The notes: generated from the sequence alone by a model not told the origin. 36,704 nucleotides of DNA from an uncultured bacterium (GCA_965371285.1 CBDUXU010000002.1:1-36704); one strand, 5' to 3'. Positions 1,980 through 29,343 are shown, counted from the stretch's first letter. Numbers and translations are program-made.

Positions 1980-2063
1980 AACTCCCTCTCACTATAAACC
2001 TTATTCCTGATTTAAAGGTTCACTTATATTGCTGCTGCTTTCCTAATTAAGCTGCCAGCTTCC

Positions 2064-3812: not shown

Positions 3813-4865
3813 CTAATAAATTTCTAGACTTTTGGACAGCCTTAAAGCCTCTATTCTATTGCTAACCTGGAGTTTTTTATATATGTTATCCAGATGGTTC
3901 TGGACAGTCTTTATTGATATACCGAGTCCGGCTGCAATCTCCTTATCCTGTTTGCCAAGCGCCATAAAGGAAAGAACATCTCTTTCCCTTTTAGTGAGTT
4001 TTAAATAGAGCTTCACGCTGTTTTTTTCTATATCAAAAACAACAAGGTAACCGCTGCCTTTATATTTGATAGACCCGTGATGATTTTTCTCCAGCCTATA
4101 GACACTAAACCTGTTTTCACCAAGTATAGAAGAAATATTATTAAGATAGAAACAACCGGGAGCATTGCCATGGGCAACCTTATTTAAAAAATCGGCCTCC
4201 CTCAAAATCCCCTCCGGCATAAGTTCCCCGTCGCTGCATAAAACTCCGCTCTCTTTTAAAATAATCTTTCCTATTTCATTAGCATAAACCAACTCACACC
4301 TGTCATTGACTACCAAAACCCCGTTATAATAGGAATTATCTATGCTAGAGAAATCAAAAAAGTTAAGTTTGCTTAACCAAATATACTTACTATAAGCATA
4401 ATATATATAAGGGGTGTACCTTTCCGACTCTCTAAAATCCGCAAGGCTATAGGGCTGATCTTTCTTTCTTATAAACCCTATACCCCCTACAGGTACCTTC
4501 CTTGTATCAAAAAATGTCGTTTGAAAAGAATGTTTAATGTCTTCGGGTTCATACCTCTCCTTATAAGCAGGGTTTTTCCTAAATTCAGCATCTCTAAAAT
4601 TTGCGTAAGCGTAAGTACAAAAACCGCCATCAATAGAGATATCTTTAAGGTCATAAAGCTTGGGTGAGTTAAGAAGATGATAGACAAAACTGTGGGGGTA
4701 TTTATAACAAACTGTCCTGCTGTCCCAAGTCAAGTTGCCAATATTGGAAATTGCCGCACAGTAACTGTCCGTAAACTTTGCCATAGGCTTTAACATGCCA
4801 TCCCTTATTGAATCAGGGGTATTAAGCAAAACAGAGCGCTTGTATATGTCACTAATGTTACTCAT
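3813..4865 (-). CDS. LuxR/FixJ-family HTH transcriptional regulator with an N-terminal sensor region containing a PAS-like segment
   Basis: 350-aa ORF. C-terminal LTKRERDVLSFMALGKQDKEIAAGLGISIKTVQNHLDNIYKKLQVSNRIEA is a canonical LuxR-type HTH. GVLVVNDRCELVYANEIGKIIL resembles a PAS core. Confidence 0.85.
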   Translation of the reverse strand: MSNISDIYKRSVLLNTPDSIRDGMLKPMAKFTDSYCAAISNIGNLTWDSRTVCYKYPHSFVYHLLNSPKLYDLKDISIDGGFCTYAYANFRDAEFRKNPAYKERYEPEDIKHSFQTTFFDTRKVPVGGIGFIRKKDQPYSLADFRESERYTPYIYYAYSKYIWLSKLNFFDFSSIDNSYYNGVLVVNDRCELVYANEIGKIILKESGVLCSDGELMPEGILREADFLNKVAHGNAPGCFYLNNISSILGENRFSVYRLEKNHHGSIKYKGSGYLVVFDIEKNSVKLYLKLTKRERDVLSFMALGKQDKEIAAGLGISIKTVQNHLDNIYKKLQVSNRIEALRLSKSLEIY

Positions 4866-4950
4866 AAATAAATAACTCTTTCTTCAATATTAAATCTATA
4901 AATATAAATTGTTTAACTAATTTTTTTATAGATTTCTCCGCTTCAACAGT

Positions 4951-4956
4951 TATAAT
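4951..4956 (+). promoter_or_regulatory. Candidate -10 hexamer TATAAT placed so that transcription would start at or next to the ATG of the hydrolase gene (possible leaderless mRNA)
   Basis: TATAAT at 4951-4956, 6-nt spacer GACACA, ATG at 4963. No Shine-Dalgarno between them. T-tract upstream, no good -35. Confidence 0.3.
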
Positions 4957-4962
4957 GACACA

Positions 4963-5805
4963 ATGAATGATTATATTAACATAAATAATATCAAAATTAA
5001 CTACTTTGACAACAAAAAAAAACTTCCACCCATAGTATTTTTACACGGAAACTCACAGTCCTCTTCCATATTTATAAACCAGCTGGAAGACCCGGTATTA
5101 ATTGAGAGTTTTCGCCTCTTGGCAATAGACCTGCCCGGTCATGGCAGGTCGGAGAAGCCGGTAAACCCCGAAGAGGTCTACTCAATTGCCGGCTATGGTG
5201 AAATATTAAAAAAATTCTGCGAAAAACTCAATTTAAAAAAAGTCACTTTTGTAGGGTTCTCACTGGGAGGGCATATACTGCTTGAAGCTCTGTATGCATT
5301 GCCAGCATCAGGGATTGTAATAACAGGAACTCCTCCTATATCAAAAATGGATGATTTTGCAGATGCGCTGCTTATAGCAGTCGATGATTTTTCATACGCC
5401 TTTAATGAAAAATTCAGCAATCAGGACATTGAATTTATTTGTGCTGCCCAGTTTTCCCCTGATTTTGAAAAAAGTAAAATACCAAAGTCTATAAAAAATG
5501 ACTTAAGGGATACAGATGGTAATGCAAGAGTGTTTATGGGTGCAAGCCTTGCAAGAGGCGGACATAAAGATGAGAAAAAAATAATAGAAGACCTCAAAAT
5601 ACCTATTGCCATAATACATGGCAGAAATGAAATCCTGGTAAAAGAGTCATACCTATCTTCTCTTAGGGCGCCAAGCCTTTGGAAAAATGAAGTTTGTGTT
5701 ATTAAAGATGCGGGGCATGCCGCTTTTCTTGAGAATCCCGAAACCTTCAATAAAACCTTATTTGACTTTGCAAATTCCTTGCAGTCAGAGCCAACAAATC
5801 TCTAA
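4963..5805 (+). CDS. Alpha/beta-fold hydrolase
   Basis: 280-aa ORF. PPIVFLHGN oxyanion region, nucleophile elbow GFSLGG, C-terminal DAGHAAFLENPE (catalytic His region). Confidence 0.85.
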   Translation: MNDYININNIKINYFDNKKKLPPIVFLHGNSQSSSIFINQLEDPVLIESFRLLAIDLPGHGRSEKPVNPEEVYSIAGYGEILKKFCEKLNLKKVTFVGFSLGGHILLEALYALPASGIVITGTPPISKMDDFADALLIAVDDFSYAFNEKFSNQDIEFICAAQFSPDFEKSKIPKSIKNDLRDTDGNARVFMGASLARGGHKDEKKIIEDLKIPIAIIHGRNEILVKESYLSSLRAPSLWKNEVCVIKDAGHAAFLENPETFNKTLFDFANSLQSEPTNL

Positions 5806-13794: not shown

Positions 13795-14207
13795 AATTCA
13801 CCTCAAAGCTTTATGTTTTAAGACATAAGGTTATTTTTATAATCTAATAATAACTATTCTAATAAATCAGTTATACATGAGGTGTTTTAGTATAATCAAA
13901 TTAGTGCGGAAAACTCCGAGATATGCAAAACTACGGAAAAGTGAAAAATAGATGCCTACTTTTGACAAAGATGATTTTTCTATGAAGATGAGACCAGGAA
14001 GCTAGTCTATTGAAGCCATATAATATTTACTACATATACAGATATTCACTTACACCAATACCTTGTAAAAAACCCCTTTATTGAAAAAAAGCTAATAAAT
14101 TCAATACATTATAGATTGATACGATATCATGAGAGAGATACAAGCTGAAAAAATTATAATGATTTAATGAATTAAATACATTATACATTAAATAAATAAA
14201 CGGTCAA

Positions 14208-14235
14208 GCCCTATTTTATACAAAATAAATAGGGC
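14208..14235. other. Orphan perfect hairpin inside the long AT-rich non-coding region upstream of the DAB operon
   Basis: GCCCTATTT (14208-14216) / AAATAGGGC (14227-14235) with a 10-nt loop, followed by AATGTTTTC. It sits between two divergently oriented genes, so it does not terminate any annotated gene. Confidence 0.5.
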
Positions 14236-14608
14236 AATGTTTTCAATAAGTTAAGGCTAGAAAAACTGCCCAAAAGCATAAAAACTATGCCCATTTATTG
14301 AATATTTCAATGTAATAGACGCCTATTTTAAAATATATCAATACCTTTATTAATTATCGAATAGTTAAACTATCCCCCTTTTACTCCTATATTATATTGA
14401 CACCTCGTTATTTCAATAGGTGAGGACTTGCCATTGACATGATTTTTGAATTTAAATTTTAGAATCTAATTGTGTTGCCTTAATGTGGGTATATGCTATG
14501 TTATATGGTGTAATTACTCACATTTTTTAGATATTTAGCTATATTGCGGACATAGGTTATTAACTAACCTTACATATAAATTATATAACAACTTTAGATA
14601 TTTAAATT

Positions 14609-16336
14609 ATGTTGCCATATTACCCTATAATTATATTCCTGGCTCCCTTCCTGGCAGGATTTATTAACGCCGCGCTTGGCTCAATACTAACAAACAAAGC
14701 CCACCGTTTTGGCATGATTTGCCACGTAGTTGCCCTTATTATTTCTGCCCAGATTCTCCACCACGTCGTTACATACGGCACAGAAACTTTATCGCTCCTT
14801 CCCGGTACTTTCCCCGGCAGTGGTCTCTTTTCTTTTACATTATATATAGACCGCCTTTCATCAGTAATGTTTGTTCTTATCTCCTTGGTTAGTCTTATTA
14901 TTTATGTCTTCGGTATGAAGTACATGAGGGAAGAAGTCGGCTACGGCAGGTTTAACATATTCCTTAGTCTCACAACTTTTATGCTCTTTTGTCTTGTTTC
15001 CAGCTCAAACCTAATAACACTTTTTATATTCTGGCAATTATCAGGACTAATGCTCTACCTGCTTGCACATCAGTACACCCACACTCCTACAATGAACGGC
15101 GCTTTTAAAACCTTCATTATATTAAGGCTTGGAGACCTGGTGTTCCTGGGCGGAATAGTGCTGGCATACCAGACATACGGCACGCTTAACATAGCAGAGA
15201 TATTTGCCCAGGCTGATGCAGTAAACAAATCCATACCTCTGTGGATGGGTACTGCCATAGACGCAAACACAGCCATAGCTCTGCTCCTATTTGTGGGAGC
15301 TATGAGTAAATCAGCTCAGTTTCCCCTCCACATTTGGGTTCAAGACGCCCTCTATGCCCCAACCCCTATGCACGCACTGCTCCACGCAGGCATTATTAAC
15401 GCAGGAGGTTTTTTAATTAACCGACTAGCCCCTCTATATGGACAGTCGCCTGTGGCTCTCCATATTATATTTGCCATTGGTTTAATCACCACCATAGTTG
15501 GGTCGTCAATGATGCTTACTCAAAACAATATAAAGAAGACATTAGGATTTTCTACAATAGGACAAATGGGTTTTATGATAATGGAGTGCGGGCTTGGCGC
15601 CTTTGCACTGGCTGTGTTCCACCTGATAGCTCATGGGCTTTTTAAAGCTACCATATTCCTCTACTGCGGAAATGTAATACACAAGACCAGAAGAAACCTG
15701 CCCCTGCCAAGTAAAACCGCAGAGGTAACGGAGGAAAATGAAACACCCTTTAGTTCCGTAACATGGTTAACAGGACTAACAACAACTTTAATACTTCCGC
15801 TGCTTATAGTGCTTGCCGCACATGGAATTCTTAACATCCCGCTTATGGATTTTCAGGGGGCAGTGATTTTTATGTTCTTTAGCTGGGTAACATCATCTCA
15901 GGCAATTATGACCATATACCACATGAAAACAAAATCTACCCTTAACTTATCTGCAAAAATATCAGTAGCAATGATAACGGCCCTGGTGGTTATAGTCTTT
16001 ACATACCTCTGGGCAGTTGAAACCTTTACCTATTTTCTCTACCCGGACCATGACGTAGTATCATCTTACTTTATGGCAGCCGCCCTTCCATCATGGTTAT
16101 TTGACTCCATAATAGCCCTAACTGCCCTTGCTGTTGTTTCCTGGTGGGCAGTAGATTATCGTCAGGCCCACGGCAAGACATTTAACAAAGCGGGGTGGGC
16201 GACAGACATGAAAACAAAAACCTATGTAGCATTAATAAACTCTTTATATATCGATAGGATATGCCAAAAAACAAATGATAAGTTTTTAAGGGTTATAAAT
16301 ATACTGGACAAAAAATACCTGAGATGGCTGCCTTGA
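14609..16336 (+). CDS. dabB: DabB-type proton-conducting membrane transporter (NuoL/MrpA/MpsA-like, PF00361-type), paralogue 1
   Basis: 575-aa polytopic ORF. SKSAQFPLHIWVQDALYAPTPMHALLHAGIINAGGF matches the NuoL TM7-8 signature (TKSAQxPLHxWLPDAMxGPTPVSALIHAATMV). HLIAHGLFKATIFLYCGNVIH matches the NuoL TM11 HxxxHxxxK region. Located upstream of a DUF2309/DabA gene. Confidence 0.85.
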   Translation: MLPYYPIIIFLAPFLAGFINAALGSILTNKAHRFGMICHVVALIISAQILHHVVTYGTETLSLLPGTFPGSGLFSFTLYIDRLSSVMFVLISLVSLIIYVFGMKYMREEVGYGRFNIFLSLTTFMLFCLVSSSNLITLFIFWQLSGLMLYLLAHQYTHTPTMNGAFKTFIILRLGDLVFLGGIVLAYQTYGTLNIAEIFAQADAVNKSIPLWMGTAIDANTAIALLLFVGAMSKSAQFPLHIWVQDALYAPTPMHALLHAGIINAGGFLINRLAPLYGQSPVALHIIFAIGLITTIVGSSMMLTQNNIKKTLGFSTIGQMGFMIMECGLGAFALAVFHLIAHGLFKATIFLYCGNVIHKTRRNLPLPSKTAEVTEENETPFSSVTWLTGLTTTLILPLLIVLAAHGILNIPLMDFQGAVIFMFFSWVTSSQAIMTIYHMKTKSTLNLSAKISVAMITALVVIVFTYLWAVETFTYFLYPDHDVVSSYFMAAALPSWLFDSIIALTALAVVSWWAVDYRQAHGKTFNKAGWATDMKTKTYVALINSLYIDRICQKTNDKFLRVINILDKKYLRWLP

Positions 16337-16548
16337 CTTTTTTTAATTTCCCGCAGGAACTTTTATAGCATTAACCGCCAAAGAGGGTCACGCTCCGCCT
16401 CTAATTAGGTTGTCATAATCTTGTTACTATATGCTATAATGACAGCTATTTTTCAGACACTTAACTCTATTTACGGTTTGTCCTTATCAGCACAGAAACA
16501 CTGCAGTGAATAGAAATTATATAAACGATTTTTTAAATGTAGAAATTT

Positions 16549-18297
16549 ATGTTGCCATACTATCCTATAATCATATTTTTGGCTCCTCTTTTAGCCGCGA
16601 CTGTTAACGCCGCAATTGGACCAATACTAGCACAAAAGGCATACCGTTTCGGTATGATTTGTCATGTAGTCACCCTTTTTGTCTCCTTGCAAATACTCTA
16701 CAATGTAGTTACATCCGGCGTGAAAACCATAGCGCTGCTGCCTGCCGCAGTTCCAGGCAATGGTCTCTTCTCCTTCACATTCTACCTGGACAGGCTTTCC
16801 TCTATAATGTTTGTCCTTATAGCTCTTGTAAGCCTCATTATATATGTCTTCGGCATGAAGTACATGAGACAGGAACCGGGCTACAACAGGTTCAATGCAC
16901 TGATAAACTCCGCGACTTTCGTACTGCTTTGCCTTGTGTCCAGCTCCAACTTGTTAACACTTTTTATATTCTGGCAGCTACTTAGCACCATGCTCTATTT
17001 TCTTGCCTATCAGCACACCCATCTTCCAACAATGAATGGAGCTTTTAGAACATTCATTATACTCAGGCTCGGTGACCTTGCGTTTCTAGGCGGCATCCTA
17101 TTGGCATACCAAACATACAACACCCTGAGCCTATCGGAAATTTTTGACCAAGTTCAAACTATAAACCAAACTGTGACGCTATGGCAGGGGTTTAGTATAG
17201 ATGTAAACACTGCAATAGCTCTGCTCATATTTGTGGGAGCTATGAGTAAATCGGCGCAGTTTCCACTACACATTTGGGTTCAAGACGCTCTATACGCACC
17301 TACCCCTATGACTGCACTCCTCCACGCAGGCATCATAAACGCAGGAGGTTTTTTGATTAACCGCTTAGCCCCCTTGTATGGACAATCTCCATCGGCTCTC
17401 CATATTATATTTGTCATCGGCGTCGTTACCACCATCGTAGGGTCGTCGTTAATGCTTACTCAAAATGATATAAAAAAGACATTAGGATTTTCTACTATAG
17501 GGCAGATGGGTTTTATGATAATGGAGTGCGGACTTGGCGCCTTTGCCCTGGCTGTGTTCCACCTGGTAGCACACGGTTTATTTAAAGCCACCATATTCCT
17601 CTACTGTGGTAATGTAATACACAAAACCAGAAAGAGTCCGCCACTACCGCCGCCCCTACAAAAGACGTCCATAGAGGGTGTTAGTTATGGCGGTGACGAG
17701 CAAACTGAGTTTAGCCTGGTAACCTGGCTCACGGGACTATCCACTACTTTAGTCCTGCCTCTGCTTATACTGCTGGCAGCACATGGACTTTTAAACATAC
17801 CACTAATGGATTTCCAGGGTGCTACAATTTTTATGTTCTTTAGCTGGGTAACATCATCTCAGGCAATTATGACCATATACCACATGCAGTCAAAAGCCAC
17901 CATAAACCTGTCAGCAAAAATATCGGTGGCTATGATAACTGCCTTAGTGGTTATAGTGTTTACCTACCTCTGGGCAGTTGAAACCTTTACCTATTTCCTA
18001 TACCCGGACCATGATATCGTATCATCTTATTTTATGGCAGCTGCCCTGCCGTCATGGATTTTTGATTCCATAATAGTCCTAACTGCACTGGGCGTTGTTT
18101 CCTGGTGGGGCGTGGATTATCGCCAGGCTCACGGCAAGGCCTTTAACAAACCGGGGTGGGCAACTGATTTAAAAACAAAAACTTATGTAATGTTAATCAA
18201 CTCCCTGTATATTGACAGGTTCTACAAAAGCTCGCATAACCGTTTTTTAAATATTATAAATAAACTGGATAAGAAATACCTGAGGTGGGTACCATAA
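16549..18297 (+). CDS. dabB: DabB-type proton-conducting membrane transporter, paralogue 2 (tandem duplicate)
   Basis: 582-aa ORF collinear with 14609-16336 (about 70% aa identity in the N-terminal 60 residues, higher towards the C-terminus, by eye). Same NuoL-like motifs. One 7-aa longer loop (RKSPPLPPPLQKTSIEGVSYGGDEQTEFSL). Confidence 0.85.
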   Translation: MLPYYPIIIFLAPLLAATVNAAIGPILAQKAYRFGMICHVVTLFVSLQILYNVVTSGVKTIALLPAAVPGNGLFSFTFYLDRLSSIMFVLIALVSLIIYVFGMKYMRQEPGYNRFNALINSATFVLLCLVSSSNLLTLFIFWQLLSTMLYFLAYQHTHLPTMNGAFRTFIILRLGDLAFLGGILLAYQTYNTLSLSEIFDQVQTINQTVTLWQGFSIDVNTAIALLIFVGAMSKSAQFPLHIWVQDALYAPTPMTALLHAGIINAGGFLINRLAPLYGQSPSALHIIFVIGVVTTIVGSSLMLTQNDIKKTLGFSTIGQMGFMIMECGLGAFALAVFHLVAHGLFKATIFLYCGNVIHKTRKSPPLPPPLQKTSIEGVSYGGDEQTEFSLVTWLTGLSTTLVLPLLILLAAHGLLNIPLMDFQGATIFMFFSWVTSSQAIMTIYHMQSKATINLSAKISVAMITALVVIVFTYLWAVETFTYFLYPDHDIVSSYFMAAALPSWIFDSIIVLTALGVVSWWGVDYRQAHGKAFNKPGWATDLKTKTYVMLINSLYIDRFYKSSHNRFLNIINKLDKKYLRWVP

Positions 18298-19319
18298 TGG
18301 TAAGGACAATACTAATAGCCATAGCTGTTTTAGTTTTCGGAACTATACTGCTCCTGAAAAACAGAAAACAGAGTTCAATAGAATTGCCCCTCCTTATATG
18401 GGCTATCTGCACAGCACTGGTGGGATTGGCCTCAATTACTGTGTTCATAATGACAAATAACCCTACGGCACTGATTGTAACATCTTTTATCTTTCTGCCG
18501 CTGCTGCCGCTGCACGGTTTCTACAAGGCTCTCCTCTCGGAACTGTCGCTGGTAGAGTCTGCTCTTTTTGCCATGATTCTTCCTGCAGTAGGGCTATCTC
18601 TCCTCTACCAGGTTATAACAATGAATGTTGCCCTGCCCCTTGAGGAAGGCGCCCTGCAAATTATATCTTATATTGCAATAACAGGAGCATTGTACGGAGC
18701 CTGCAAGGCTCTCGTTCAACTCAGAGTAGCCCCACTTGTGAGTTTAGCCGGAGTTAGTCTCTTCTCCGTGCTCTGGTGGTACCTGGCAGAAAGCGCAACA
18801 GAAATAGTCACATCGTCACCTGATAAGTTTCTGCCTCAGGTTGTTTTTTATACCCTCTCCCTAATGCTCGTAACATCGGGAATACTCATTGCGTGGCGCT
18901 TTGTTGTCACCCGCTACGGCGACATAGAAATAAACAAAATAAATATGACCATCGGAGGCCTAGCTACCACAATGCCAAGGTTTGGAGGTCTATTTACTCT
19001 AATCATTGTAGCAGCCATGGGGCGGCCGCCAGGTGGCCTCTTCAGCGGTTATGTAGAATTGTTATTCGCTCCAACTACCAGTCTTGGACCTGGAATGTGG
19101 TTTATACTTTTAACATGGCTTATTACTTCCTGGTATTTCATTAAACTCATGCAGAGTATTTTATTTGGACCGCCAAAAAATAATATAATGACTAATAATA
19201 ATTTGACTGACTTAACAGCAGGGGAGGTCATGCCTCTGGCTGCAATAGTAACTCTTTTAATTATACTTGGTTTGGCACCTTATGACAGCTTGATGGAAAT
19301 AATTAATTTTGCCAGGTAA
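18297..19319 (+). CDS. Truncated, divergent antiporter-like membrane subunit (NuoM/NuoN/MrpD-like remnant motifs), third membrane component of the DAB locus
   Basis: The ORF track starts at GTG 18285. ATG 18297 is preferred because of the TAATG stop/start overlap with dabB2 and GAGGTGGG 8 nt upstream. About 10 predicted TM helices. LLPLHGFY recalls the PLHxW motif. GGLATTMPRFGGLFTLIIVAAMGRPPGGLFSGYVELL recalls the GGL...LSLAGxPPxxGFxGK segment. The C-terminal DLTAGEVMPLAAIVTLLIILGLAPY recalls the NuoM/NdhD C-terminus. Confidence 0.6.
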   Translation: MVRTILIAIAVLVFGTILLLKNRKQSSIELPLLIWAICTALVGLASITVFIMTNNPTALIVTSFIFLPLLPLHGFYKALLSELSLVESALFAMILPAVGLSLLYQVITMNVALPLEEGALQIISYIAITGALYGACKALVQLRVAPLVSLAGVSLFSVLWWYLAESATEIVTSSPDKFLPQVVFYTLSLMLVTSGILIAWRFVVTRYGDIEINKINMTIGGLATTMPRFGGLFTLIIVAAMGRPPGGLFSGYVELLFAPTTSLGPGMWFILLTWLITSWYFIKLMQSILFGPPKNNIMTNNNLTDLTAGEVMPLAAIVTLLIILGLAPYDSLMEIINFAR

Positions 19320-19380
19320 AAAAACCGGATAAAAGAGTATTCACACTTAAAGGTATTTAAACTTATAAGGTATTCATATA

Positions 19381-22300
19381 ATGACAGAAGAAAATAAATT
19401 TTCCAAAAGAATGCATGTCCGCGGCCTCATAAGGCAGGGTAGCGAGATTATTGCTTATCACTACCCTATGCGTACTTTTGTTCATCACAACCCCCTGCAT
19501 GGGTTGGAAGACCTAACCTTCGAAGAGGCACTTAGAGAAGGTACCCGCTCATTAGGGGCAAAAGGATACCTGCCTATAGCGCAGTATAGAGAATATTATA
19601 AAAACGGCCGCATAAAGGAATCAGACATAGATAATGTTTTATCTGCCTATGTTGAAGATAAAAAAATAACCATTGCAGGTAGAGAAGTAACTCACTTTGA
19701 TGTTTTAAAGTCTCACTTAATCAGCGGCATGTTAGATGAGGTAAGCAGGTCTGCTGATTCTCTGCCACAGAGGCCCCGCCTTTCTAAGTTAATGGAGCAT
19801 TTAAGTTCCCCTGCCCAAAGCAGTGACAATGACAATAAGGTAGGTAACTTTATAGACAGCTACATAAAAAAGGATACTAGTGACCTGGGCAGGTCACTAG
19901 CCCTATCTCAGTGGATAGACGAAACCATCTCGGTTAGCGGCGAGGAAAAACTAACGGATCTCATAGACAGGGAACTCATTAAATGGTGCGAGTCTTTCTT
20001 AGATGAAAACCACGCCAAATGGGTAATGCCTTACAGGGAAAAAGGTTTTTACGGGGCATGGAAATATCTTGCGGCAAAGGAGTGTAGTATTCACGGCATC
20101 AGGGATAGTAAATCGAAACTGGAAAAACTGCCCGACAATGCAGAAGATTCCATCATAGAGAGCCTCACAGATATGGGGATAAATAAAGAAAACTGGAAAG
20201 ACTACCTGACCCTCCACCTGACCAGAATGCCAGGGTGGACGGGGTTTATAAAATGGAGAGAAGACCAGAGAGATAACCCCTGGCAGCTAAGCAATCCTGC
20301 AACCCTGACTCAGTACCTTGCCATAAGGCTCTACTTAGAAAAAGAACTTGTACAAAAATCCTCCCATAGAGAGTTAGGCATTCATGGTGATGTAGTCTCC
20401 ATAAATAATTATATTTCCTCGCATAAACACTCATACTTTTTGAGAAAAGAGAGGCTTAAAAGCTCTATGAGCCATACCTATTCAAGGCAAGTTGACAGGC
20501 TTATCTTAAGCTCCAACAGCGATAAAAACTCCCGCTGGGTCTCCCTTGCCGATGAGTATGGCAAAGATATTATAAGTAAAAATGACAATATAAAAAACTG
20601 GACATCTGCCTGGCAGCTCTTAACACTGGCAGAGTCCTTATCTATAGGATTAGAAGATTTATTAAGGGCAGAGGCAGAGGATTTAAAAACAATTACCCAA
20701 TGGATGGATGACTTTAGTGAAGCTAAACATGGGCCGGTTTGGCTAAAAGCCTTTGAAGCGGGATACAAAGCCCCTCTCTTGGATAAGATAACTAAGGCAA
20801 TTAAAGCAGCTAAAACAAAGGGCGGGATAAGCCGCCCAAAGACCCAGTCGGTTTTCTGCATTGATGTCAGGAGCGAGCCTTTTCGCCGCCACCTGGAGTC
20901 TGTTGGGAAGAACGAAACTTACGGTTTTGCAGGGTTCTTTTCCGTATTCATAAAACACCGCGCCATGGAAAGTAGTTTTGAAGTAGACCACTTCCCTGTA
21001 GTTATGAAAGCAAAAAACTCTGTGAGAGAAATCCCCAGACTTGACCAGGGCAAGAAACTAATTGAACATCGTAAAAAAGGCAAATTCTCTAAAGCAGCCT
21101 ATACACTGTACAGTAACCTTAAAGAACATGTTATTACCCCTTATGTAATGGTTGAATCCATAGGGTGGTTCTACAGCGTGCCTATTATAGGAAAGACGCT
21201 TTTCACCCGTTGGTACAGAAAAACAAAACTTTGGGTAAAAGCAAAGTGGATGCCTGATATTAAAACGCAAATGACAATAAACAAACCAACCAAAGACGAA
21301 GCAGATGACATGCTCTCTTTTAACCAGCATGTAGTTATACGCCGCGCACTTCATGAGAAGTTTCCAAAAATTACCGGCGATGCCCCTGACGACTTTGTAG
21401 AATACCTGCGAGTCGGAGCTATGGCGGAAAATATAGAATTTAAACCGCTGGAAAATCAGCTCCTCACAAGTAATGAGCAAATAACTTGCATTAAGGAACT
21501 AAGAGATAACTACCACATAAACCCCCGCTGGGCAAAGTCCAGCATGAGCCGCATAATGCTGCTTGGTCTCACCGAGACCCAGCAGGTCTCTACAGTAGGA
21601 ACATCCCTTCGTATGATGGGGCTTACCGATAACTTTGCCCGCCTTATTTTAATCTGCGGCCATGGCAGCACCACCGACAACAACCCCTTTGAGGCAGCCC
21701 TTGACTGCGGCGCCTGCGGAGGTAACTCGGGAGCTCCAAATGCTCGCGTTTTCACCGACATTGCAAACAAAATTGAAGTAAGAGAAGCACTAAGAGAGGA
21801 AGGTATAAACATTCCTGATGATACGTTTTTTGTAGCAGGCAAACATGACACAACCACTGATGATGTTACTTTCTTTGATGTAGATAACCTGCCCCAGTCT
21901 CACCAAACTGACTTAGAGAACTTCCGCATTGACCTGAAAAAAACAGGCATGTTAAATGCTCGCGAGAGATGTTCCCGCTTTCCGGAGCTGAGGGAGGGTC
22001 TCACCCCTTCGAGGGCAAAACGAATCGTGTTAGAGAGAAGCGATGATTGGAGTCAGGTTCGCCCCGAGTGGGGACTCTCCGGAAATGCGGCCTTCATAAT
22101 TGGCAGAAGGTATCTTTCAAAAGAGGTTAACTTGGAAGGCCGGGTGTTCCTCCATTCCTATGACTTTAAACTTGACCCCAAGGGCACGCTCCTGGAGGGT
22201 ATAATGACTGCCCCTCAGGTAGTTGCCCAGTGGATAAATATGGAACACTACTTCTCCACTGTCGATAACGAGGTCTTTGGCAGCGGAAGTAAAATCTACC

Positions 22301-22584
22301 ATAATGTAGTATGCAAAAACGGCATAATGTTTGGAAGCCAAAGCGATTTAAGAACAGGCCTACCCATGCAGACTGTCATGGCAGAAGGCAAACCCTTTCA
22401 TGAGCCAATGCGCCTCTTGACAATTATAGAAGCACCGACCGGGCCAATTACCGACATCATTGAGAGGCACCCACTCCTGCAGAATTATTACAACAACTCT
22501 TGGGTGCATCTTGTTTCTATAGACCCTGAGGAGGGAAGTTTTTCAGAGTATATACCAAACAAAGGCTGGGAGCCTTGCAAGTAG
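19381..22584 (+). CDS. dabA: DabA (DUF2309 / PF10070, MpsB-like) beta-carbonic-anhydrase-like subunit of a DAB inorganic-carbon pump
   Basis: 1067-aa ORF. N-terminal MRTFVHHNPLHGLE. Putative Zn ligands: FCIDVRSE (Cys493, Asp495; nt 20857-20865), CGHGS (His761; nt 21661-21663) and DCGACGG (Cys776; nt 21706-21708). The His-to-Cys spacing of 15 matches what I recall for characterised DabA. Confidence 0.9.
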   Translation: MTEENKFSKRMHVRGLIRQGSEIIAYHYPMRTFVHHNPLHGLEDLTFEEALREGTRSLGAKGYLPIAQYREYYKNGRIKESDIDNVLSAYVEDKKITIAGREVTHFDVLKSHLISGMLDEVSRSADSLPQRPRLSKLMEHLSSPAQSSDNDNKVGNFIDSYIKKDTSDLGRSLALSQWIDETISVSGEEKLTDLIDRELIKWCESFLDENHAKWVMPYREKGFYGAWKYLAAKECSIHGIRDSKSKLEKLPDNAEDSIIESLTDMGINKENWKDYLTLHLTRMPGWTGFIKWREDQRDNPWQLSNPATLTQYLAIRLYLEKELVQKSSHRELGIHGDVVSINNYISSHKHSYFLRKERLKSSMSHTYSRQVDRLILSSNSDKNSRWVSLADEYGKDIISKNDNIKNWTSAWQLLTLAESLSIGLEDLLRAEAEDLKTITQWMDDFSEAKHGPVWLKAFEAGYKAPLLDKITKAIKAAKTKGGISRPKTQSVFCIDVRSEPFRRHLESVGKNETYGFAGFFSVFIKHRAMESSFEVDHFPVVMKAKNSVREIPRLDQGKKLIEHRKKGKFSKAAYTLYSNLKEHVITPYVMVESIGWFYSVPIIGKTLFTRWYRKTKLWVKAKWMPDIKTQMTINKPTKDEADDMLSFNQHVVIRRALHEKFPKITGDAPDDFVEYLRVGAMAENIEFKPLENQLLTSNEQITCIKELRDNYHINPRWAKSSMSRIMLLGLTETQQVSTVGTSLRMMGLTDNFARLILICGHGSTTDNNPFEAALDCGACGGNSGAPNARVFTDIANKIEVREALREEGINIPDDTFFVAGKHDTTTDDVTFFDVDNLPQSHQTDLENFRIDLKKTGMLNARERCSRFPELREGLTPSRAKRIVLERSDDWSQVRPEWGLSGNAAFIIGRRYLSKEVNLEGRVFLHSYDFKLDPKGTLLEGIMTAPQVVAQWINMEHYFSTVDNEVFGSGSKIYHNVVCKNGIMFGSQSDLRTGLPMQTVMAEGKPFHEPMRLLTIIEAPTGPITDIIERHPLLQNYYNNSWVHLVSIDPEEGSFSEYIPNKGWEPCK

Positions 22585-22618
22585 TTTTTAAACTTTAAAT
22601 ACAAAGGAGCAAAAGATT

Positions 22619-22957
22619 ATGACCAAACTATCGCTACACCCCATGAAAGAAGTAAAAATAATCATTGAAGGTGAACAACTGAAATTTGTAACCGACATAC
22701 TTGATGATATTGAAACAAGCGGTTATACGGTTTTCCAAAATATTTCCGGCAAAGGTCACCACGGGCTCCACGCAGCAGGAGCAGCTAACTCCATGTTTAA
22801 CGAGATGGAAGGCCTTATAATGATTTTAACAGTTGTCCCCGAAGACAGGGTTGACCCCATACTGGCAGGACTTGGCCCGGTGTTTGAAAAAGACACAGGA
22901 GTTATTTTTGTATCTGATGTGTCGGTGAGCCGCAGGGAATATTTTTCCGGGGAATAA
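22619..22957 (+). CDS. PII-like signal-transduction protein (GlnB superfamily; CPII/SbtB-like context)
   Basis: 112-aa ORF. MKEVKIIIEGEQLKFVTDILDDIETSGYTVFQNISGKGHHG follows the PII beta-alpha-beta plus T-loop pattern. AAGGAG lies 9 nt upstream of the ATG. Starts 34 nt after the dabA stop. Confidence 0.7.
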   Translation: MTKLSLHPMKEVKIIIEGEQLKFVTDILDDIETSGYTVFQNISGKGHHGLHAAGAANSMFNEMEGLIMILTVVPEDRVDPILAGLGPVFEKDTGVIFVSDVSVSRREYFSGE

Positions 22958-23181: not shown

Positions 23182-23931
23182 ATGATAACTTCAAATCCAA
23201 AACACATATTATTAGCCGACGACTCCATGTTAATCAGGGCCCGCCTTGGCAATATGCTCGAAGAAGCAGGCCACCATGTCACCATAGCCGTTGACGGGGC
23301 AGCCGTCATTGACACCTTAAATGGCGGAAACATAAACTTTGACTTAATAATACTGGACATGAATATGGAACACATAAACGGCTTTGCAGTGCTGGAGTGG
23401 ATGAATGTTAATGGTTATATGCCCGGCATTCCGGTTCTCTGCATGACAGACTTCTCCAACCTTAACAAAGTGTCATGGAAGGCCTCGGAGATGGGGTCCA
23501 GCGGAACACTCATAAAAGGACTCACACCGGGGCAAACCATAGAAGCGGTAAACAAAGTACTCTTTCAGGAAACAGTTTCCTCCAGAACTGAGGAAAGAAT
23601 CCATACTTCTATACCGGCAATTTTTGAGATAGGCTCCGCAGGTCACGAAGGTACACTTCTTAATATTAGCAGAGGCGGGGTGTTTCTCAAGACTGATGTC
23701 AGGCTTTTTATCGGCTCCACCTTATCCCTTAAGTTTACTATCCCTGGGTTTGAAGACTCTCCCCTAACCCCCAAAGGCAAAGTTAACTGGCTTACCCCGG
23801 CAGAGAAAAAAAACGACTTCTTCACAGGGGCAGGAGTTAAGTTTAAGGTAATTACCGAGAGAAACAAAACTACCATAAACGAATTCCTGTCTAAACACGA
23901 AGACAAAGAAGAACAAGAGAAACAAGCCTAA
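23182..23931 (+). CDS. Response-regulator receiver fused to a PilZ c-di-GMP-binding domain (paralogue 1)
   Basis: 249-aa ORF. REC: ILLADDS, LIILDMNMEHINGF, VLCMTD, TLIKG. PilZ: RTEER (RxxxR) and NISRGGVF (D/NxSxxG). Confidence 0.85.
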   Translation: MITSNPKHILLADDSMLIRARLGNMLEEAGHHVTIAVDGAAVIDTLNGGNINFDLIILDMNMEHINGFAVLEWMNVNGYMPGIPVLCMTDFSNLNKVSWKASEMGSSGTLIKGLTPGQTIEAVNKVLFQETVSSRTEERIHTSIPAIFEIGSAGHEGTLLNISRGGVFLKTDVRLFIGSTLSLKFTIPGFEDSPLTPKGKVNWLTPAEKKNDFFTGAGVKFKVITERNKTTINEFLSKHEDKEEQEKQA

Positions 23932-24168: not shown

Positions 24169-24876
24169 ATGATTACAAAGAACAAAAAAACAATTCTTAT
24201 TGCAGACAGTAGCATGCTTGGAAGATCCAGACTGGTAAGCATTTGTGAAGACGGTGGTCACAGGGTTATTACAGCCGATAATGGTCGAGAGCTTGCAGGG
24301 CATATTAAAAACAAACAAAGCATAGACCTGCTCCTTATGGATATGCACCTTGATAAAGTAGACGGGCTAAGAATGCTGGAATGGATAAATCTAAATTTAA
24401 GTAGAAGCTTTCCTATCCTATGCGTGGCATCAATGAACGAACATGATTCTTTATTGTGGAAAGTAAGGGACTTGGGGGCAGTGGGCCTTATATCTAAAAA
24501 CATGCCTGGCGAGGTGATATTAGAAAACATAAATGCTGCTCTCTTTAGCCATACTCAAAAAACCAGGCACAAAAAAAGAAAATTCACAACCATACCTGCA
24601 ACATTCAACCTGGGCATGCGTGATCATGGCGCTAGTATTCTCAACATAAGTCCCGGAGGTTTATTCTTGCACACCAACATGAACCTCCTTACCGGTTCAA
24701 AAGTAAAAGTTGACTTCACCCTCCCTGATAAAGAAAGAACACATATACAGGCTACAGGAACAATTAAATGGGCTACACCAAGGAATAAAAAAGAATCTGC
24801 ATTTTCGGGAGTTGGAATAATGTTTAATTCTGGCAGCGAGTCACCTGGACCCGGGCTGGCAGGTTTCCTGCCATAA
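24169..24876 (+). CDS. Response-regulator receiver fused to a PilZ c-di-GMP-binding domain (paralogue 2)
   Basis: 235-aa ORF. REC: ILIADSS, LLLMDMHLDKVDGL, ILCVAS, GLISKN. PilZ: RHKKR (RxxxR) and NISPGGLF. The N-terminus MITKNKKTILIAD parallels paralogue 1 (MITSNPKHILLAD). Confidence 0.85.
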   Translation: MITKNKKTILIADSSMLGRSRLVSICEDGGHRVITADNGRELAGHIKNKQSIDLLLMDMHLDKVDGLRMLEWINLNLSRSFPILCVASMNEHDSLLWKVRDLGAVGLISKNMPGEVILENINAALFSHTQKTRHKKRKFTTIPATFNLGMRDHGASILNISPGGLFLHTNMNLLTGSKVKVDFTLPDKERTHIQATGTIKWATPRNKKESAFSGVGIMFNSGSESPGPGLAGFLP

Positions 24877-26168: not shown

Positions 26169-27665
26169 ATGAACCTTAGAGAATCTAATTGGCATAACGC
26201 AGCAGGCGCGTCCTTTGACGCAGTTATTATAGGGGGAGGAATTAACGGAGCCTCTATATACAAACAACTATGCGATGAAGGCTACAAAGTGCTGCTCATT
26301 GACAAAGGAGATTTTAGCTCAGGTACGAGTCAGTCTTCTGGCATGATGATTTGGGGAGGACTCCTCTACCTAAAAGATTTTCATTTTTCTACAGTATATC
26401 GGTTATGCAGGGATCGAAGTAGAATACTGGAACTATACAAAAACGAAGTATCTCCAAAACAATTCAGGTACATACTTTCAAAAAAATACGGCCACAATAA
26501 ATTTTTAGTAGCACTAGCTGTTTATCTTTACTGGTTTATTGGACTGGTAAAGACCAAAAGGCCCCAGTTTCAAAATCACTTCAAAGAAACAGATTTTTTA
26601 AAAACAGACGATATTAAAACCTCTCTCATAATGGAAGAAGGGTTTCTGGCAGATTCGGACTCTAGGTTCGTACTGGACTGGATTCTGTCTAACCAAAACA
26701 AATATGCTATCGCTATGAACTACTGCTCTACAAATAAAGGTCAATACAGTAAAAAAGACAAAGAATGGACACTTGAATTAAAAGACCATTTTAAAAACAG
26801 AAACTGTACTATAAAGTCTAAGATTGTAATAAACTGCGCAGGTGTTTGGACAGACCAAGTCAATAAGGAATTCAATATTGAAGCTACACACAAACATGTC
26901 TTTAGTAAAGGTGTCTTTGTAGCTTTTCAAAGGCCTAAAAACCTTCATGACCCGTTAACATTTGACCTTGGAATAAATGACGATACAATTACACTAATTC
27001 CATGGGGATCTGTTGCGCTCTGGGGACCTACGGAAAACATGGTAGAGTCAATCGAAGAGGGTTTCAGTCCAAATTCTGATGACATAAACTTCCTCCTGCA
27101 CCACGCAAGCAAACACTTAAAGGACTCAATTACTAACTCTCCTATAGTTTCTCTGCGCTGCGGTATAAGGCCTCTTGCCGTAAAAAAATCATTTAACGAA
27201 ACTCCCTACCCCCTTAAACTATCAAGGGCTTTTAAGATTGACTCTAATAAAGACCGCCCATGGATATCAGTTTATGGTGGAAAAATAAGCGGCTGTCTCT
27301 CCATGGCAGAACAAGTAACAAAAATTGTTTTAAAAAAAATAACTCCTACAGGGCATATAACCGGTAATAATAATATCTTCACCTCTGACCATGACAGGAC
27401 CACTTTCCCGGGGCTAAGTAGTGCAATTCCAACAGTTAAATGGTCTGTAGATAATGAATTCTGCTGCACTCTCGATGACTACCTGAGGAGGAGAACAAAC
27501 ATTGCGCAGCAAATACCACGAGAAGGGTTGGGGCAAAATGACGAAAATCTTGAAATCATTAAGGCCATGGCAAAAGATATGCCAGACTACCAGGGCCGGA
27601 GTGACAGCTTAATCAATGATTATGTGGAAAAAGTAAAAAACAACTTTGACAAACTAACCGGTTAA
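26169..27665 (+). CDS. FAD-dependent oxidoreductase of the glycerol-3-phosphate dehydrogenase/oxidase (GlpD/DAO) family
   Basis: 498-aa ORF. N-terminal dinucleotide fold FDAVIIGGGINGASIY...LLIDKGDFSSGTSQSSGMM. INCAGVW, GGKISGCLSMAE and LDDYLRRRT resemble GlpD landmarks. Starts 8 nt after the upstream stop. Confidence 0.7.
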   Translation: MNLRESNWHNAAGASFDAVIIGGGINGASIYKQLCDEGYKVLLIDKGDFSSGTSQSSGMMIWGGLLYLKDFHFSTVYRLCRDRSRILELYKNEVSPKQFRYILSKKYGHNKFLVALAVYLYWFIGLVKTKRPQFQNHFKETDFLKTDDIKTSLIMEEGFLADSDSRFVLDWILSNQNKYAIAMNYCSTNKGQYSKKDKEWTLELKDHFKNRNCTIKSKIVINCAGVWTDQVNKEFNIEATHKHVFSKGVFVAFQRPKNLHDPLTFDLGINDDTITLIPWGSVALWGPTENMVESIEEGFSPNSDDINFLLHHASKHLKDSITNSPIVSLRCGIRPLAVKKSFNETPYPLKLSRAFKIDSNKDRPWISVYGGKISGCLSMAEQVTKIVLKKITPTGHITGNNNIFTSDHDRTTFPGLSSAIPTVKWSVDNEFCCTLDDYLRRRTNIAQQIPREGLGQNDENLEIIKAMAKDMPDYQGRSDSLINDYVEKVKNNFDKLTG

Positions 27666-27686
27666 GTAAATAATATTATCTAACAG

Positions 27687-28976
27687 ATGAAAAAGACAAA
27701 CTCCAACATACCTGCCATACTTGGCGGACCCAAATCAGTCACCCTTGAACACGGTGACATCAATAAATGGCCTATTCTTACCGGCAGGGACGAAGAAGCT
27801 GTGCTAAGTGTAATTCGCGGCGGTAATATTTCCACTCACCCTATTATAAGAGAACTGGAAAATGATTATGCCAGGCTTACAGACAGGCCGTATGCACTAT
27901 CACACAACAACGGGACTTCAGCGCTGCTCGCTGCATTTTATAGTATAGGTTTAAAACCAGGCGACGAGGTCCTTGTTCCTTCTGCAACTTTTTGGGCATC
28001 GGTCCTTCCTATGTTATGGGTTGGAGCAATCCCTGTTTTTTGTGAAAGCGAAAACGAGCGGCTGGGCATTGACCCAATTGACATGGAGAAAAAAATAACC
28101 GACAGAACCCGCGCCATTGTTGTAGTGCACCTTTGGGGTTTGCCCTGCAAAATGACTGAAATAACCAGACTGGCAAAAAAACACGGCCTGAAAATTATAG
28201 AAGACGCCTCGCATGCCCATGGGGCGACCTGGAGAGACAAAAAATGCGGTTCTCTTGGCGACATATCGGTATTTAGCCTCCAAGGCGACAAGCTTGCACC
28301 ATCAGGTGAAGGTGGTATGCTCCTATGCAATGAATACGAGTATTTCGAAAAAGCTGTTTCTATGGGAGATATTACGCGGATAATAGAGCTGGAAACCCCG
28401 GCCAGGAGGTTTGCTGCAACAAGTTTTGGCATAAAAACCAGGATGTCACCACTGTCAGCTGCAATAGGAAAGAACCAATTAAAAAACCTGGAGGAACATA
28501 ATAAAGTAAGGAATAAAAACCTTACATACCTCTCAGAAGGCCTTGAAGAGCTTGGCTTTAAAACTTTCCTTCCGCCTAAACACATAAAAAGAGTATATTT
28601 TGAATATTTAATTGAATTTAATGAGGCCGGTTCAGGACTATCACCAGCACTACCGCCAGCACTGCCAATAGATAAACTAATAAAAGCTCTGGAGAAAGAA
28701 GGGGTCCTGGTAGAACGACCACGATACCCGCTACTTCACCAGCAGCCTTTTTTCACCGAAGGGGCTTTTAAAGATATCCTTCGCCTCCCGGAAGGAACAC
28801 CTCTACCTGATTATAATAAATGTTCTCTGCCAATAACTGAAGCCAGTAACAATAAGCTGCTAAAACTTCCTTCGTTCCCGGGCAGGGATAATGGCATCAT
28901 AGACCAGTATTTAAGAGCGTTTAAAAAAGTTATCAACCACTTAGAAGAAATTGAAGACCTGAAAATAGATGACTAA
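27687..28976 (+). CDS. DegT/DnrJ/EryC1/StrS-family PLP-dependent aminotransferase
   Basis: 429-aa ORF. HNNGTSALL, DEVLVPSATFWAS, IIEDASHAHG and VFSLQGDKLAPSGEGGML (PLP lysine in the SxxxxKxxxxGEGG pattern). Confidence 0.85.
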   Translation: MKKTNSNIPAILGGPKSVTLEHGDINKWPILTGRDEEAVLSVIRGGNISTHPIIRELENDYARLTDRPYALSHNNGTSALLAAFYSIGLKPGDEVLVPSATFWASVLPMLWVGAIPVFCESENERLGIDPIDMEKKITDRTRAIVVVHLWGLPCKMTEITRLAKKHGLKIIEDASHAHGATWRDKKCGSLGDISVFSLQGDKLAPSGEGGMLLCNEYEYFEKAVSMGDITRIIELETPARRFAATSFGIKTRMSPLSAAIGKNQLKNLEEHNKVRNKNLTYLSEGLEELGFKTFLPPKHIKRVYFEYLIEFNEAGSGLSPALPPALPIDKLIKALEKEGVLVERPRYPLLHQQPFFTEGAFKDILRLPEGTPLPDYNKCSLPITEASNNKLLKLPSFPGRDNGIIDQYLRAFKKVINHLEEIEDLKIDD

Positions 28977-29343
28977 TAAAAACACTAAATACAGCTTATT
29001 ACTACGATTTGCCAATGTGTTGTTTCATATAACACACCTAACGACTATTTCATTTTTTTTGTTTGCATGGCTTTTTGAAGAAACAAGGGCTGCTCATTAT
29101 ATACTTTCAATATTAATACTACTCTCCTGGCATCTACTAAACTGCTGCCTCATAACTGAAATACAGTGGCGAATAAAAGGGCTTTTAGGCGAGAGGCCCC
29201 CTCATGATCAGTATGTAAAATATCTGCTTGATAAAATAACTCGGCGCGACTTAAATCCCGATGCAACTGATAAACTAACTAAATATACTTATTATATAAT
29301 TCTAGTAATTGCTACAATACTGCTGATTGACAAAAAGTTCTAA
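28969..29343 (+). CDS. Small integral membrane protein of unknown function (possibly DUF2784-like)
   Basis: 124-aa ORF overlapping the aminotransferase stop by 8 nt. Three hydrophobic helices. The CCLITEIQWRIKG segment resembles the CPLT..E motif I associate with DUF2784, which is a weak recollection. Confidence 0.5.
   Translation: MTNKNTKYSLLLRFANVLFHITHLTTISFFLFAWLFEETRAAHYILSILILLSWHLLNCCLITEIQWRIKGLLGERPPHDQYVKYLLDKITRRDLNPDATDKLTKYTYYIILVIATILLIDKKF

Follow-up and report, generated by a model that had tools for sequence, protein, structure and literature searches.

We called ORFs across a 36,704-nt (36.7-kb) stretch of DNA from an uncultured bacterium, hereafter the window. Five co-directional ORFs on the + strand, separated by gaps of 212, -1, 61 and 34 nt, constitute the locus, and these genes, their coordinates and gaps, and a TAATG overlap are exactly as claimed in the first-pass annotation. 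The features are as follows.

14400-14608, + strand: 5′ leader of dabB copy 1, AT-rich, with promoter-like hexamers
14609-16336, + strand: dabB copy 1 (upstream paralogue), 575 aa, NuoL-like, predicted proton-conducting subunit
16337-16548, + strand: dabB-dabB spacer, 212 nt, with promoter-like TTGTCA-N19-TATAAT around 16410-16440
16549-18297, + strand: dabB copy 2, 582 aa
18297-19319, + strand: dabC-like subunit, 340 aa from ATG; an alternative GTG start at 18285 would give 344 aa
19381-22584, + strand: dabA, 1067 aa, long DabA1-type
22619-22957, + strand: PII-like gene, 112 aa

A PF10070 protein and two PF00361 proteins are thereby encoded in one co-directional gene set, which is the general signature of DAB/DAC systems, and the Pfam E-values of the five-gene locus are far beyond chance. 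The neighboring genes encode PutA, ArgZ-like and DDAH-like proteins, hemerythrins, an MCP-like protein, response regulators, PilZ and an Aas-like protein. As noted at first reading, no RuBisCO or carboxysome genes were found in the 36.7-kb window, and the context is without visible autotrophy genes.

The dabA product matched PF10070 from end to end (residues 19-1042, 3.9e-261, 869 bits), which bears out its identification as DabA, and also matched DabA2 in the PDB (9rd0_A, 6.9e-96). The anticipated Cys/Asp/His/Cys ligands are all present: the zinc-ligand set consists of C493, D495 (in CIDVRSE), H761 and C776 and is invariant in a 15-sequence alignment. The His-to-Cys spacing is 15, as in H. 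neapolitanus DabA2 (ligands C351, D353, H524 and C539). The sequence E771-x3-D775-C776 corresponds, at a constant offset, to E704/D708/C709 of Thermocrinis albus and is the only E/D-C coupling motif in the window DabA. We predict that DabA is the cytosolic, β-carbonic anhydrase (CA)-like catalytic subunit. Its nearest relative, at locus L002, is 68% identical; beyond the window's own lineage, identity is ~50% and the relatives come from autotrophs.

The two DabB paralogues proposed earlier were also recovered, with matches to PF00361 (6e-49 for copy 1, 5.4e-48 for copy 2) and PF00662 (3.5e-10 and 2.6e-12, respectively), and copy 2 matched DabB2 in the PDB (9rd0_B, 1.2e-35). The copies are 78% identical by BLASTP and 79% in a codon alignment, in which dN/dS was 0.128 at a dS of 1.09; purifying selection acts on both. 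Among 126 columns that are ≥95% conserved in 65 DabB sequences, copy 1 retains 124 and copy 2 retains all 126. In this comparison, copy 1 keeps K234, H338/H342/K346 and H358/R361, and in both copies the latter two groups correspond at a constant offset to H308/H312/K316 and H328/R331 of T. albus DabB. The extra DabB is intact, with all coupling residues kept. The stop codon of copy 2 overlaps the dabC ATG (TAATG), a configuration of predicted translational coupling. Similarity is mosaic across both window copies and the L002 copy, a sign that the copies may have recombined or collapsed.

The 340-aa protein had been read as a truncated antiporter-like third subunit. It yielded no match in a Pfam search but a weak one to TIGR01972 (NuoM, 1e-12), with residues 61-333 covering model positions 211-469 in the C-terminal half, and its family profile aligned to E. 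coli NuoM 222-484 (3rko_M, 1.6e-15). In the profile alignment, NuoM K234 is replaced by F, H348 by L and E407 by Y, and the K265 segment is deleted. The AF2 model (pLDDT 66, pTM 0.63) gave ND4, NuoM and ND2 as best Foldseek matches (TMq 0.5-0.65). Relatives of 412-439 aa, as well as fusions to DabB, invariably occupy the position between dabB and dabA, and fusions of 783-877 aa belong to the same HMM family as the 340-aa protein.

DABs had been regarded as two-component systems only, but DAB1, the three-subunit DAC (hneap_0909-0908-0907), has a third essential membrane subunit, DabC, and the T. albus DabABC heterotrimer has been solved by cryo-EM at 1:1:1 stoichiometry (bioRxiv 10.64898/2026.05.01.722082). 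[quoted passage not shown] The 340-aa protein has the DAB1 characteristics of a location between dabB and dabA, the lack of a Pfam domain, a likeness to the part of NuoM adjoining NuoL and hydrophobic residues where the proton path would run, and its sequence fits a DabC that would be the remnant of a NuoM C-terminal half. This assignment draws on gene position, predicted fold, the pattern of residues and the occurrence of DabB-DabC fusions within the HMM family of the 340-aa protein, with the characterized DabC compared by description only: Hneap_0908 and D3SP02 are not listed by name among the homologue matches of the 340-aa protein, and tblastn against the machine-read, corrupt T. albus supplement DNA gave no usable signal, even for DabB. 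The truncated antiporter-like character stood, while a role as a third pumping module was rejected for want of the NuoM proton-path residues; the analogy to an array of three antiporter modules fails for the same reason.

The 112-aa protein is PII-like, as first proposed (PF00543 P-II, 6.7e-21). Its best PDB matches were 5d4n and 5d4l (~1.2e-26), which we take to be CPII. CPII-type proteins show bicarbonate-enhanced binding of ADP/AMP, and Wheatley and colleagues are said to have described CPII in 2016 as a carboxysome-associated PII. The window protein resembles CPII and cyanobacterial SbtB in being a small PII-fold protein encoded beside an inorganic-carbon transporter, but the window lacks a carboxysome context and SbtB is a distant match only (~6e-4). 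In the window, 34 nt separate the gene from dabA. Of the 53 loci scored, 47 have a PII gene behind dabA, and the published account of the T. albus Dab1 operon speaks of it as 'including pII protein' (bioRxiv 10.64898/2026.05.01.722082). The PII gene is a regular member of the DAB1 operon.

In common with DAB1, the window has the genes dabB-dabC-dabA in this order, an accompanying PII gene, a DabA of the long type (1067 aa versus 1046 aa for H. neapolitanus DabA1), the zinc ligands, DabB proton-path residues and DabA-DabB coupling motif, and a NuoM-like DabC with neither a Pfam domain nor a proton path. It differs by a second intact dabB immediately upstream, by a longer DabC (340 aa, and 412-439 aa in Nitrospirota/Nitrospinota relatives, versus about half of NuoM as published) and by the lack of nearby carboxysome or RuBisCO genes. 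The DAB2/MpsAB systems (H. neapolitanus DabA2B2, PDB 9rd0; S. aureus MpsAB) have the same PF10070 and PF00361 pair, but they are without DabC, their DabA is shorter (827 aa) and a PII gene is not usually described. Complex I (NuoL-NuoM-NuoN) and Mrp (MrpA-MrpD) are similar insofar as DabB is homologous to NuoL and DabC to the C-terminal half of NuoM, whereas in the window the proton path resides in DabB only and no other Mrp or Nuo subunits occur. Cyanobacterial NDH-1MS/MS′ (NdhD3/NdhF3/CupA and NdhD4/NdhF4/CupB) likewise couple vectorial CO2 hydration to antiporter-like subunits. However, no CupA/CupB (ChpY/ChpX) homologue or NDH-1 core domain was found in the window ORFs scanned, the thylakoid context is missing, the catalytic subunit is the β-CA-like DabA, and the NdhF3 family score was far below the cut-off (119 versus 589 bits). 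Membership in the NDH-1 CO2-uptake modules, to which the first-pass annotation had likened the system, was rejected for lack of CupA/CupB and the NDH-1 core.

The locus therefore probably comprises the genes for a DAB1-type CO2 pump (DabA, DabB and DabC), a PII-like regulator and a second intact dabB. It is a modest variant of a known pump type and not a new machine, as four of its five genes represent a described operon type; the composition, earlier taken to be uncharacterized as a whole, is so only in its second dabB. We found no paper describing an extra dabB in DAB1 operons in a search whose reach did not extend to several key papers.

The five-gene layout is not unique to the window, contrary to the impression of a singular arrangement. 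Among 53 informative Nitrospirota loci, dabB-dabB-dabC-dabA-PII recurs in 12 and a one-dabB version is present in 22. The closest relative of the window (L002/L003) has dabB-dabC-dabA only. DabB paralogue pairs, 66-82% identical and under purifying selection, occur in the window lineage and in a dozen or more Nitrospira species. The Nitrospira pairs fall into an 'up' and a 'down' clade of orthologues (bootstrap support 99 and 92), kept separate in at least seven species. At locus L028, a whole fused DabB-DabC module is duplicated (78% identity) beside one DabA, and a Nitrospira locus, L036, carries frameshifted dabB copies. In the two-dabB loci of Nitrospira, the upstream copy is preceded by a structured leader that contains a terminator, and the downstream operon has its own promoter-like element, a conserved CTTGACG-N15-GTAYTAATG motif in a spacer of 105-220 nt. 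These different upstream elements suggest that the Nitrospira copies may be regulated separately.

In Nitrospirota, DAB, SulP, orphan DabA and Mrp genes are preceded by a conserved leader RNA that is structured, includes a terminator and is absent from Rfam 15. This leader RNA may outweigh the pump finding in importance: should it act as a riboswitch, the ligand would directly signal the inorganic-carbon or cation status of the cell.

A search with the Nitrospirota leader model R1 gave no match, the R1 element being absent from the window, and no Rfam family was found in the leader of dabB copy 1. The ~150-180 nt upstream of both dabB ATGs are similar in an alignment of the two repeat units, and the leader of copy 1 was co-duplicated, as its homology to the spacer ahead of copy 2 shows; compared with that spacer, it has 8 nt inserted in the stretch from the -35-like to the -10-like element. 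As both leaders are homologous, differential regulation of the two dabB genes is not demonstrated for the window organism. No terminator-like site was detected on the + strand of the 212-nt spacer, so the five genes may all be transcribed together.

The solved DAB1 and DAB2 complexes suggest, by homology, how the pump may work. CO2 would enter the cell by diffusion and undergo hydration at the zinc site buried in DabA (C493, D495, H761 and C776), powered by proton flow through the NuoL-like DabB (K234 and H338/H342/K346). The contact between DabB H358/R361 and DabA E771/D775 would transmit this flow to the active-site region, so that hydration becomes unidirectional and bicarbonate accumulates in the cytoplasm; the complex would be an energy-coupled, one-way carbonic anhydrase. 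DabC would serve as a NuoM-derived structural subunit that conducts no protons, and the CPII-like PII protein probably tunes the pump by adenylate and bicarbonate status. The upstream DabB would be a functional paralogue, yielding two pump variants that differ in regulation or in coupling properties. If the organism is a heterotroph, the pump would supply bicarbonate for carboxylations.

For the two DabBs, the most likely arrangement, with about an even chance of being correct taken by itself, is that they are interchangeable, alternative partners of the single DabA/DabC. We favor alternative over simultaneous occupancy because DabA has a single coupling motif, the stoichiometry of the solved complex is 1:1:1 and L002/L003 have one dabB. 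Precedent is found in NDH-1MS/MS′, where paralogous NdhD/NdhF/Cup sets swap into a common core.

An expanded complex in which DabB1, DabB2 and the 340-aa protein stand side by side on one DabA, like NuoL/M/N or MrpA/D, is unlikely. The tightly packed, co-directional genes with no terminator detected between the dabB copies would suit it, as would the complete proton path in both copies, the retention of this layout with orthologous clades across many Nitrospira species, and the two fused modules of L028. However, the 340-aa protein has no Lys/Glu/His proton path, leaving two pumping modules at most, and both DabBs keep the H358/R361 that would dock on the single E771/D775 site. The 1:1:1 heterotrimer, the single dabB of the closest relative and of 22/53 loci, and the differing upstream control elements of the Nitrospira copies also argue against it. 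If true, such a complex would move more protons per CO2, permitting uptake when CO2 or the proton motive force is lower. We likewise see only a small chance that both DabBs join DabC and DabA in one complex, for instance with DabB1 attached to the exposed side of DabC or DabB2, or that the paralogues differ in coupling ion or pH range. Joint assembly would make a vectorial carbonic anhydrase in which two pumps serve one catalyst and the H+/CO2 ratio is higher, and either case would mean that duplication of the DAB membrane module was selected repeatedly (in the window lineage, Nitrospira and the fused pair of L028).

It is quite improbable that the extra dabB is a redundant duplicate acting by dosage only or en route to loss. 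Its absence from the closest relative, the frameshifted copies at L036 and the mosaic similarity of the window and L002 copies point in this direction, but a dN/dS of 0.13 over a dS of ~1.1, the 124/126 intact columns and long retention in separate orthologous clades of at least seven Nitrospira species point away from it. A cation/bicarbonate symporter, as MpsAB of Staphylococcus is proposed to be for Na+/HCO3- (PMC13144422), or a membrane-potential generator, in either case serving pH/ion homeostasis instead of hydrating CO2, would agree with the context devoid of visible autotrophy genes and with the Nitrospirota leader motif, which links DAB regulation to cation/bicarbonate transport through Mrp and SulP, but is highly improbable given the conserved zinc ligands and DabA-DabB coupling motif of structurally characterized vectorial CAs and a long, DAB1-type DabA whose ~50% identical relatives beyond its own lineage are from autotrophs.

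No simpler energy-coupled CO2 pumps are known than DAB complexes, which are candidates for engineering into crops and industrial microbes and whose coupling mechanism structural work is only now resolving. Natural DabB pairs sharing one DabA/DabC, the arrangement that we favor, offer material for mapping the residues that set coupling, affinity and ion use, and they would reveal whether bacteria alternate between membrane modules in the way that cyanobacteria do with NdhD/NdhF.

The five genes of the DAB locus are co-directional on the forward strand, and our ORF calls reproduced the sites and the intergenic gaps (212, -1, 61 and 34 nt, in order) of the first-pass annotation. The Pfam searches that it had proposed assigned PF10070 to the 1067-aa protein, PF00361 to both ~580-aa proteins and PF00543 to the 112-aa protein.

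Genes of the DAB locus in the window (ORF calls; Pfam matches with E-values)
14609-16336, +, dabB copy 1; PF00361 (6e-49) and PF00662
16549-18297, +, dabB copy 2; PF00361 (5.4e-48) and PF00662
18297-19319, +, dabC-like gene, 340 aa, its ATG within the TAATG overlap; no Pfam match
19381-22584, +, dabA, 1067 aa; PF10070 (3.9e-261)
22619-22957, +, PII-like gene, 112 aa; PF00543 (6.7e-21)

The neighboring genes encode PutA, ArgZ-like and DDAH-like enzymes, hemerythrins, an MCP-like protein, response regulators, PilZ proteins and an Aas-like fusion. As noted at first reading, no RuBisCO or carboxysome gene is found among the window genes; likewise, the window contains no gene for MpsC or carbonic anhydrase, and no tRNA or rRNA gene was found in it. 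An 814-nt non-coding and very AT-rich stretch (13795-14608; GC about 0.27-0.32) separates dabB copy 1 from a divergently oriented response-regulator gene, and the equivalent gap in the syntenic relative locus L002 spans 776 nt with no sequence conservation. Just 3′ of the DAB genes lie tandem response-regulator-PilZ genes (23182-23931 and 24169-24876; 36% identical), of which L002 has the first only. Compared with L002, the window also carries an insertion at 26169-29343, comprising a DAO-like oxidoreductase gene, a DegT-family aminotransferase gene and a DUF2784 gene.

The 340-aa protein weakly matches the C-terminal half of NuoM in NCBIfam (1e-12; model positions 211-469 of 486), and a profile built from this protein and its relatives aligns to residues 222-484 of E. 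coli NuoM (1.6e-15). An AlphaFold2 model (pLDDT 66, pTM 0.63) is most similar to ND4/NuoM and also to the N-terminally truncated ND2 of metazoans. The proton-path residues of NuoM are lost: K234 is replaced by Phe, H348 by Leu and E407 by Tyr, and the segment containing K265 is deleted. The family is small: a search of 1.84 billion proteins yielded 108 representatives at E up to 1e-30. Its members are proteins of 412-439 aa from Nitrospirota and Nitrospinota, a shorter form of 338-340 aa in the lineage of the window itself, and DabB-DabC fusions of 783-938 aa. The DAB1 operon of H. neapolitanus encodes DabB1 (hneap_0909), a small membrane protein (hneap_0908) and DabA1 (hneap_0907, 1046 aa), together with a P-II gene. 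The DAB1 of Thermocrinis albus has been solved as a DabA:DabB:DabC heterotrimer (2026 preprint, bioRxiv 10.64898/2026.05.01.722082); Table 6 of that preprint has the entry "DabC present? yes, fused" for both T. albus and Hydrogenobacter. In the PDB, the solved DAB complexes are DAB2 (9rd0) only, and no DAB1 entry was found. A tblastn search against the machine-read synthetic DNA of T. albus DabB(-C), from which bases were lost (2224 of 2317 nt), gave one weak HSP, even for DabB. At each testable point, the 340-aa protein agrees with the published description of DabC. It fits this known DAB1 subunit, and we infer its final identification with characterized DabC. DABs had been taken as two-component systems, which does not hold for these two DAB1s with their third membrane subunit. 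The third antiporter-like subunit of the first-pass annotation is indeed a NuoM-related protein, but one that fits a known subunit and is devoid of the proton-path residues.

In sequence, DabA, DabB and PII of the window agree residue by residue with the characterized machinery. DabA carries CIDVRSE (C493, D495) and H761...E771-x3-D775-C776. In T. albus, the proton path of DabB consists of H308/H312/K316, and H328/R331 form hydrogen bonds with DabA E704/D708 beside the catalytic C709. The equivalents in both DabB copies of the window are H338/H342/K346 and H358/R361, all offset by +30, and the DabA partner motif is at an offset of +67 from E704/D708/C709. Residues 142-143 are W-Q (FWQL) in both copies (15032-15037 and 16972-16977) and align with the TM5 glutamate of NuoL (GWEGVG); the Trp is conserved in the family while the next residue is not. 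The best solved relatives of the PII protein are 5d4n/5d4l (1.2e-26), which we take to be Thiomonas CPII structures, with SbtB at 6e-4. For T. albus, the authors label their construct "Dab1 operon including pII protein" (bioRxiv 10.64898/2026.05.01.722082).

The first-pass annotation knew of no characterized multi-subunit DAB of this composition. We scanned a DabA alignment over one genome per GTDB species, which yielded 80 loci, nearly all from Nitrospirota, and called the ORFs of each locus before classing them against the window proteins. Among the 53 loci with at least 5.5 kb upstream, the five-gene layout occurs in 12, and it is thus recurrent rather than singular.

Layouts among the 53 surveyed loci with at least 5.5 kb upstream
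dabB-dabC-dabA-PII: 22/53
dabB-dabB-dabC-dabA-PII: 12/53
dabB-dabA-PII: 10/53
fused dabB~dabC-dabA-PII: 2/53
two tandem fused dabB~dabC (78% identical), then dabA-PII (L028): 1/53
dabB-dabC-dabA, PII not scored present: 2/53
other layouts: 4/53

In locus L028, the entire membrane module is duplicated, with tandem DabB-DabC fusions of 893 and 904 aa (L028:3530-6211 and L028:6263-8977) ahead of one dabA and PII; single fusions are found in L007, L058 and L071. The closest relative of the window, L002/L003 (two Logan contigs; DabA 68% identical), is syntenic on both flanks but has dabB-dabC-dabA alone, and searches of it found no second dabB, PII gene or PII remnant. Some Nitrospirales loci carry a divergent second DabA-like gene upstream of the DAB operon (L040, L043 and L044 around 2400-3930, -; L081:2769-5455, -), truncated in some cases and without a membrane partner; orphan DabA genes are known in Nitrospira (PMC13147460). 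L008 has a full second dabB-dabA-PII set (221-5690, -). The Nitrospiraceae contig with P0042 has a dabB-dabC-dabA-PII operon preceded, in divergent orientation, by genes for an MpsC-family protein (PF10057) and a beta-carbonic anhydrase.

The extra dabB is intact and, by its conservation, functional. Identity between the two copies is 78% by BLASTP and 79% in the codon alignment, with a dS of 1.09 and a dN/dS of 0.128. Among the 126 columns conserved at ≥95% across 65 DabB sequences, copy 1 retains 124 and copy 2 all 126. The duplication also took in some 150-180 nt upstream of dabB. A neighbor-joining tree on BLOSUM distances placed the two copies as sisters, and a bootstrapped tree on Kimura distances joined copy 1 with the L002 gene (87%). 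The similarity among the window copies and the L002 dabB is mosaic along the gene, and the three possible groupings share 4, 6 and 5 derived sites. On the bootstrapped tree, the mosaic similarity and these sites, a duplication specific to the window lineage was dropped. The mosaic fits exchange between tandem copies, by recombination or gene conversion, and the single dabB of L002 is perhaps a collapse from two. The dabB pair of Nitrospira is old and maintained; the genes of seven species form separate orthologous clades (bootstrap 99 for the upstream and 92 for the downstream dabB).

In Nitrospira, the upstream dabB, or the sole dabB in one-dabB loci, sits behind a structured leader ending in an intrinsic terminator. 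The spacer ahead of the downstream dabB is without this leader, and in all 13 two-dabB loci it contains a promoter-like motif, CTTGACG-N15-GTAYTAATG, mostly 70-98 nt from the dabB start; in L036, which is frameshifted, the distance reaches about 146 nt. In L012, L046, L060 and L067, near-variants of the motif, GTATTATTG, occur some 110 nt 5′ of the leader. The dabB-dabB spacer is 211-220 nt long in 7/11 loci and 212 nt in the window.

Examples of the promoter-like motif and the leader in relative loci
L055:5847-5876, promoter-like motif
L013:5829-5858, promoter-like motif
L070:5857-5886, promoter-like motif
L012:2595-2624, promoter-like motif
L017:5865-5968, +, leader
L064:3929-4037, +, leader
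L016:4017-4120, +, leader
L044:18023-18129, -, leader
L079:6596-6654, +, leader
L078:7484-7549, +, leader

The leader consists of GUAGGG-hairpin-GCAGUACAAGCC and then a AAGCCAACCG...CGGUUGGCUUUU terminator. Its hairpin helix is 91% paired with compensatory changes in 5/8 pairs; the covariation score is 0.302 versus 0.230 for shuffles (0/500 reach 0.302) and ≤0.14 for slid partners, and the folding z-scores range from -4 to -6. It matches no family in Rfam 15, and a literature search found no published description. The covariance model built on it, R1, detected 36 copies in the Nitrospirota loci (1.36 Mb) but none in the window or L001-L004. In Nitrospirota DAB operons the leader precedes the first dabB; elsewhere it lies 5′ of SulP/STAS (BicA-like) transporter genes, of an orphan gene for an N-terminal DabA-like protein and of an Mrp antiporter operon (mnhE/mrpF). 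These are the genes that a sensor of inorganic-carbon or cation status would be expected to govern, and the leader is a candidate for such an element, either a riboswitch or an attenuator. For the leader in the window itself, a conserved RNA element was rejected: neither Rfam nor R1 matched, the sequence is not conserved relative to the leader of L002, and the spacer folds unremarkably, with a z-score of +0.5.

The two DabB proteins are most likely alternative membrane partners of DabA and not parts of a larger chain. This is favored by the single coupling motif of DabA, the 1:1:1 stoichiometry of the solved DAB1 complex, the docking residues kept in both paralogues, and the close relative with a single DabB. 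The separate upstream elements of the Nitrospira dabB genes point the same way, a regulatory argument that may extend to the window by analogy. In the window, the leaders of copies 1 and 2 are homologous, a scan found no intrinsic terminator between the two genes, and the Nitrospirota leader is absent. For these reasons the larger complex of the first-pass annotation, in which both DabB and DabC sit side by side under one DabA, stays live as a minority option.

The window operon belongs to a known kind, DAB1 with a PII gene, to which an intact second dabB is added; the addition is undescribed, although common in nature. For a heterotroph such a role would be plausible, and DABs in heterotrophs have already been documented. 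In its layout, the DAB operon of the window is a modest variation on a known kind rather than a new type of machine.
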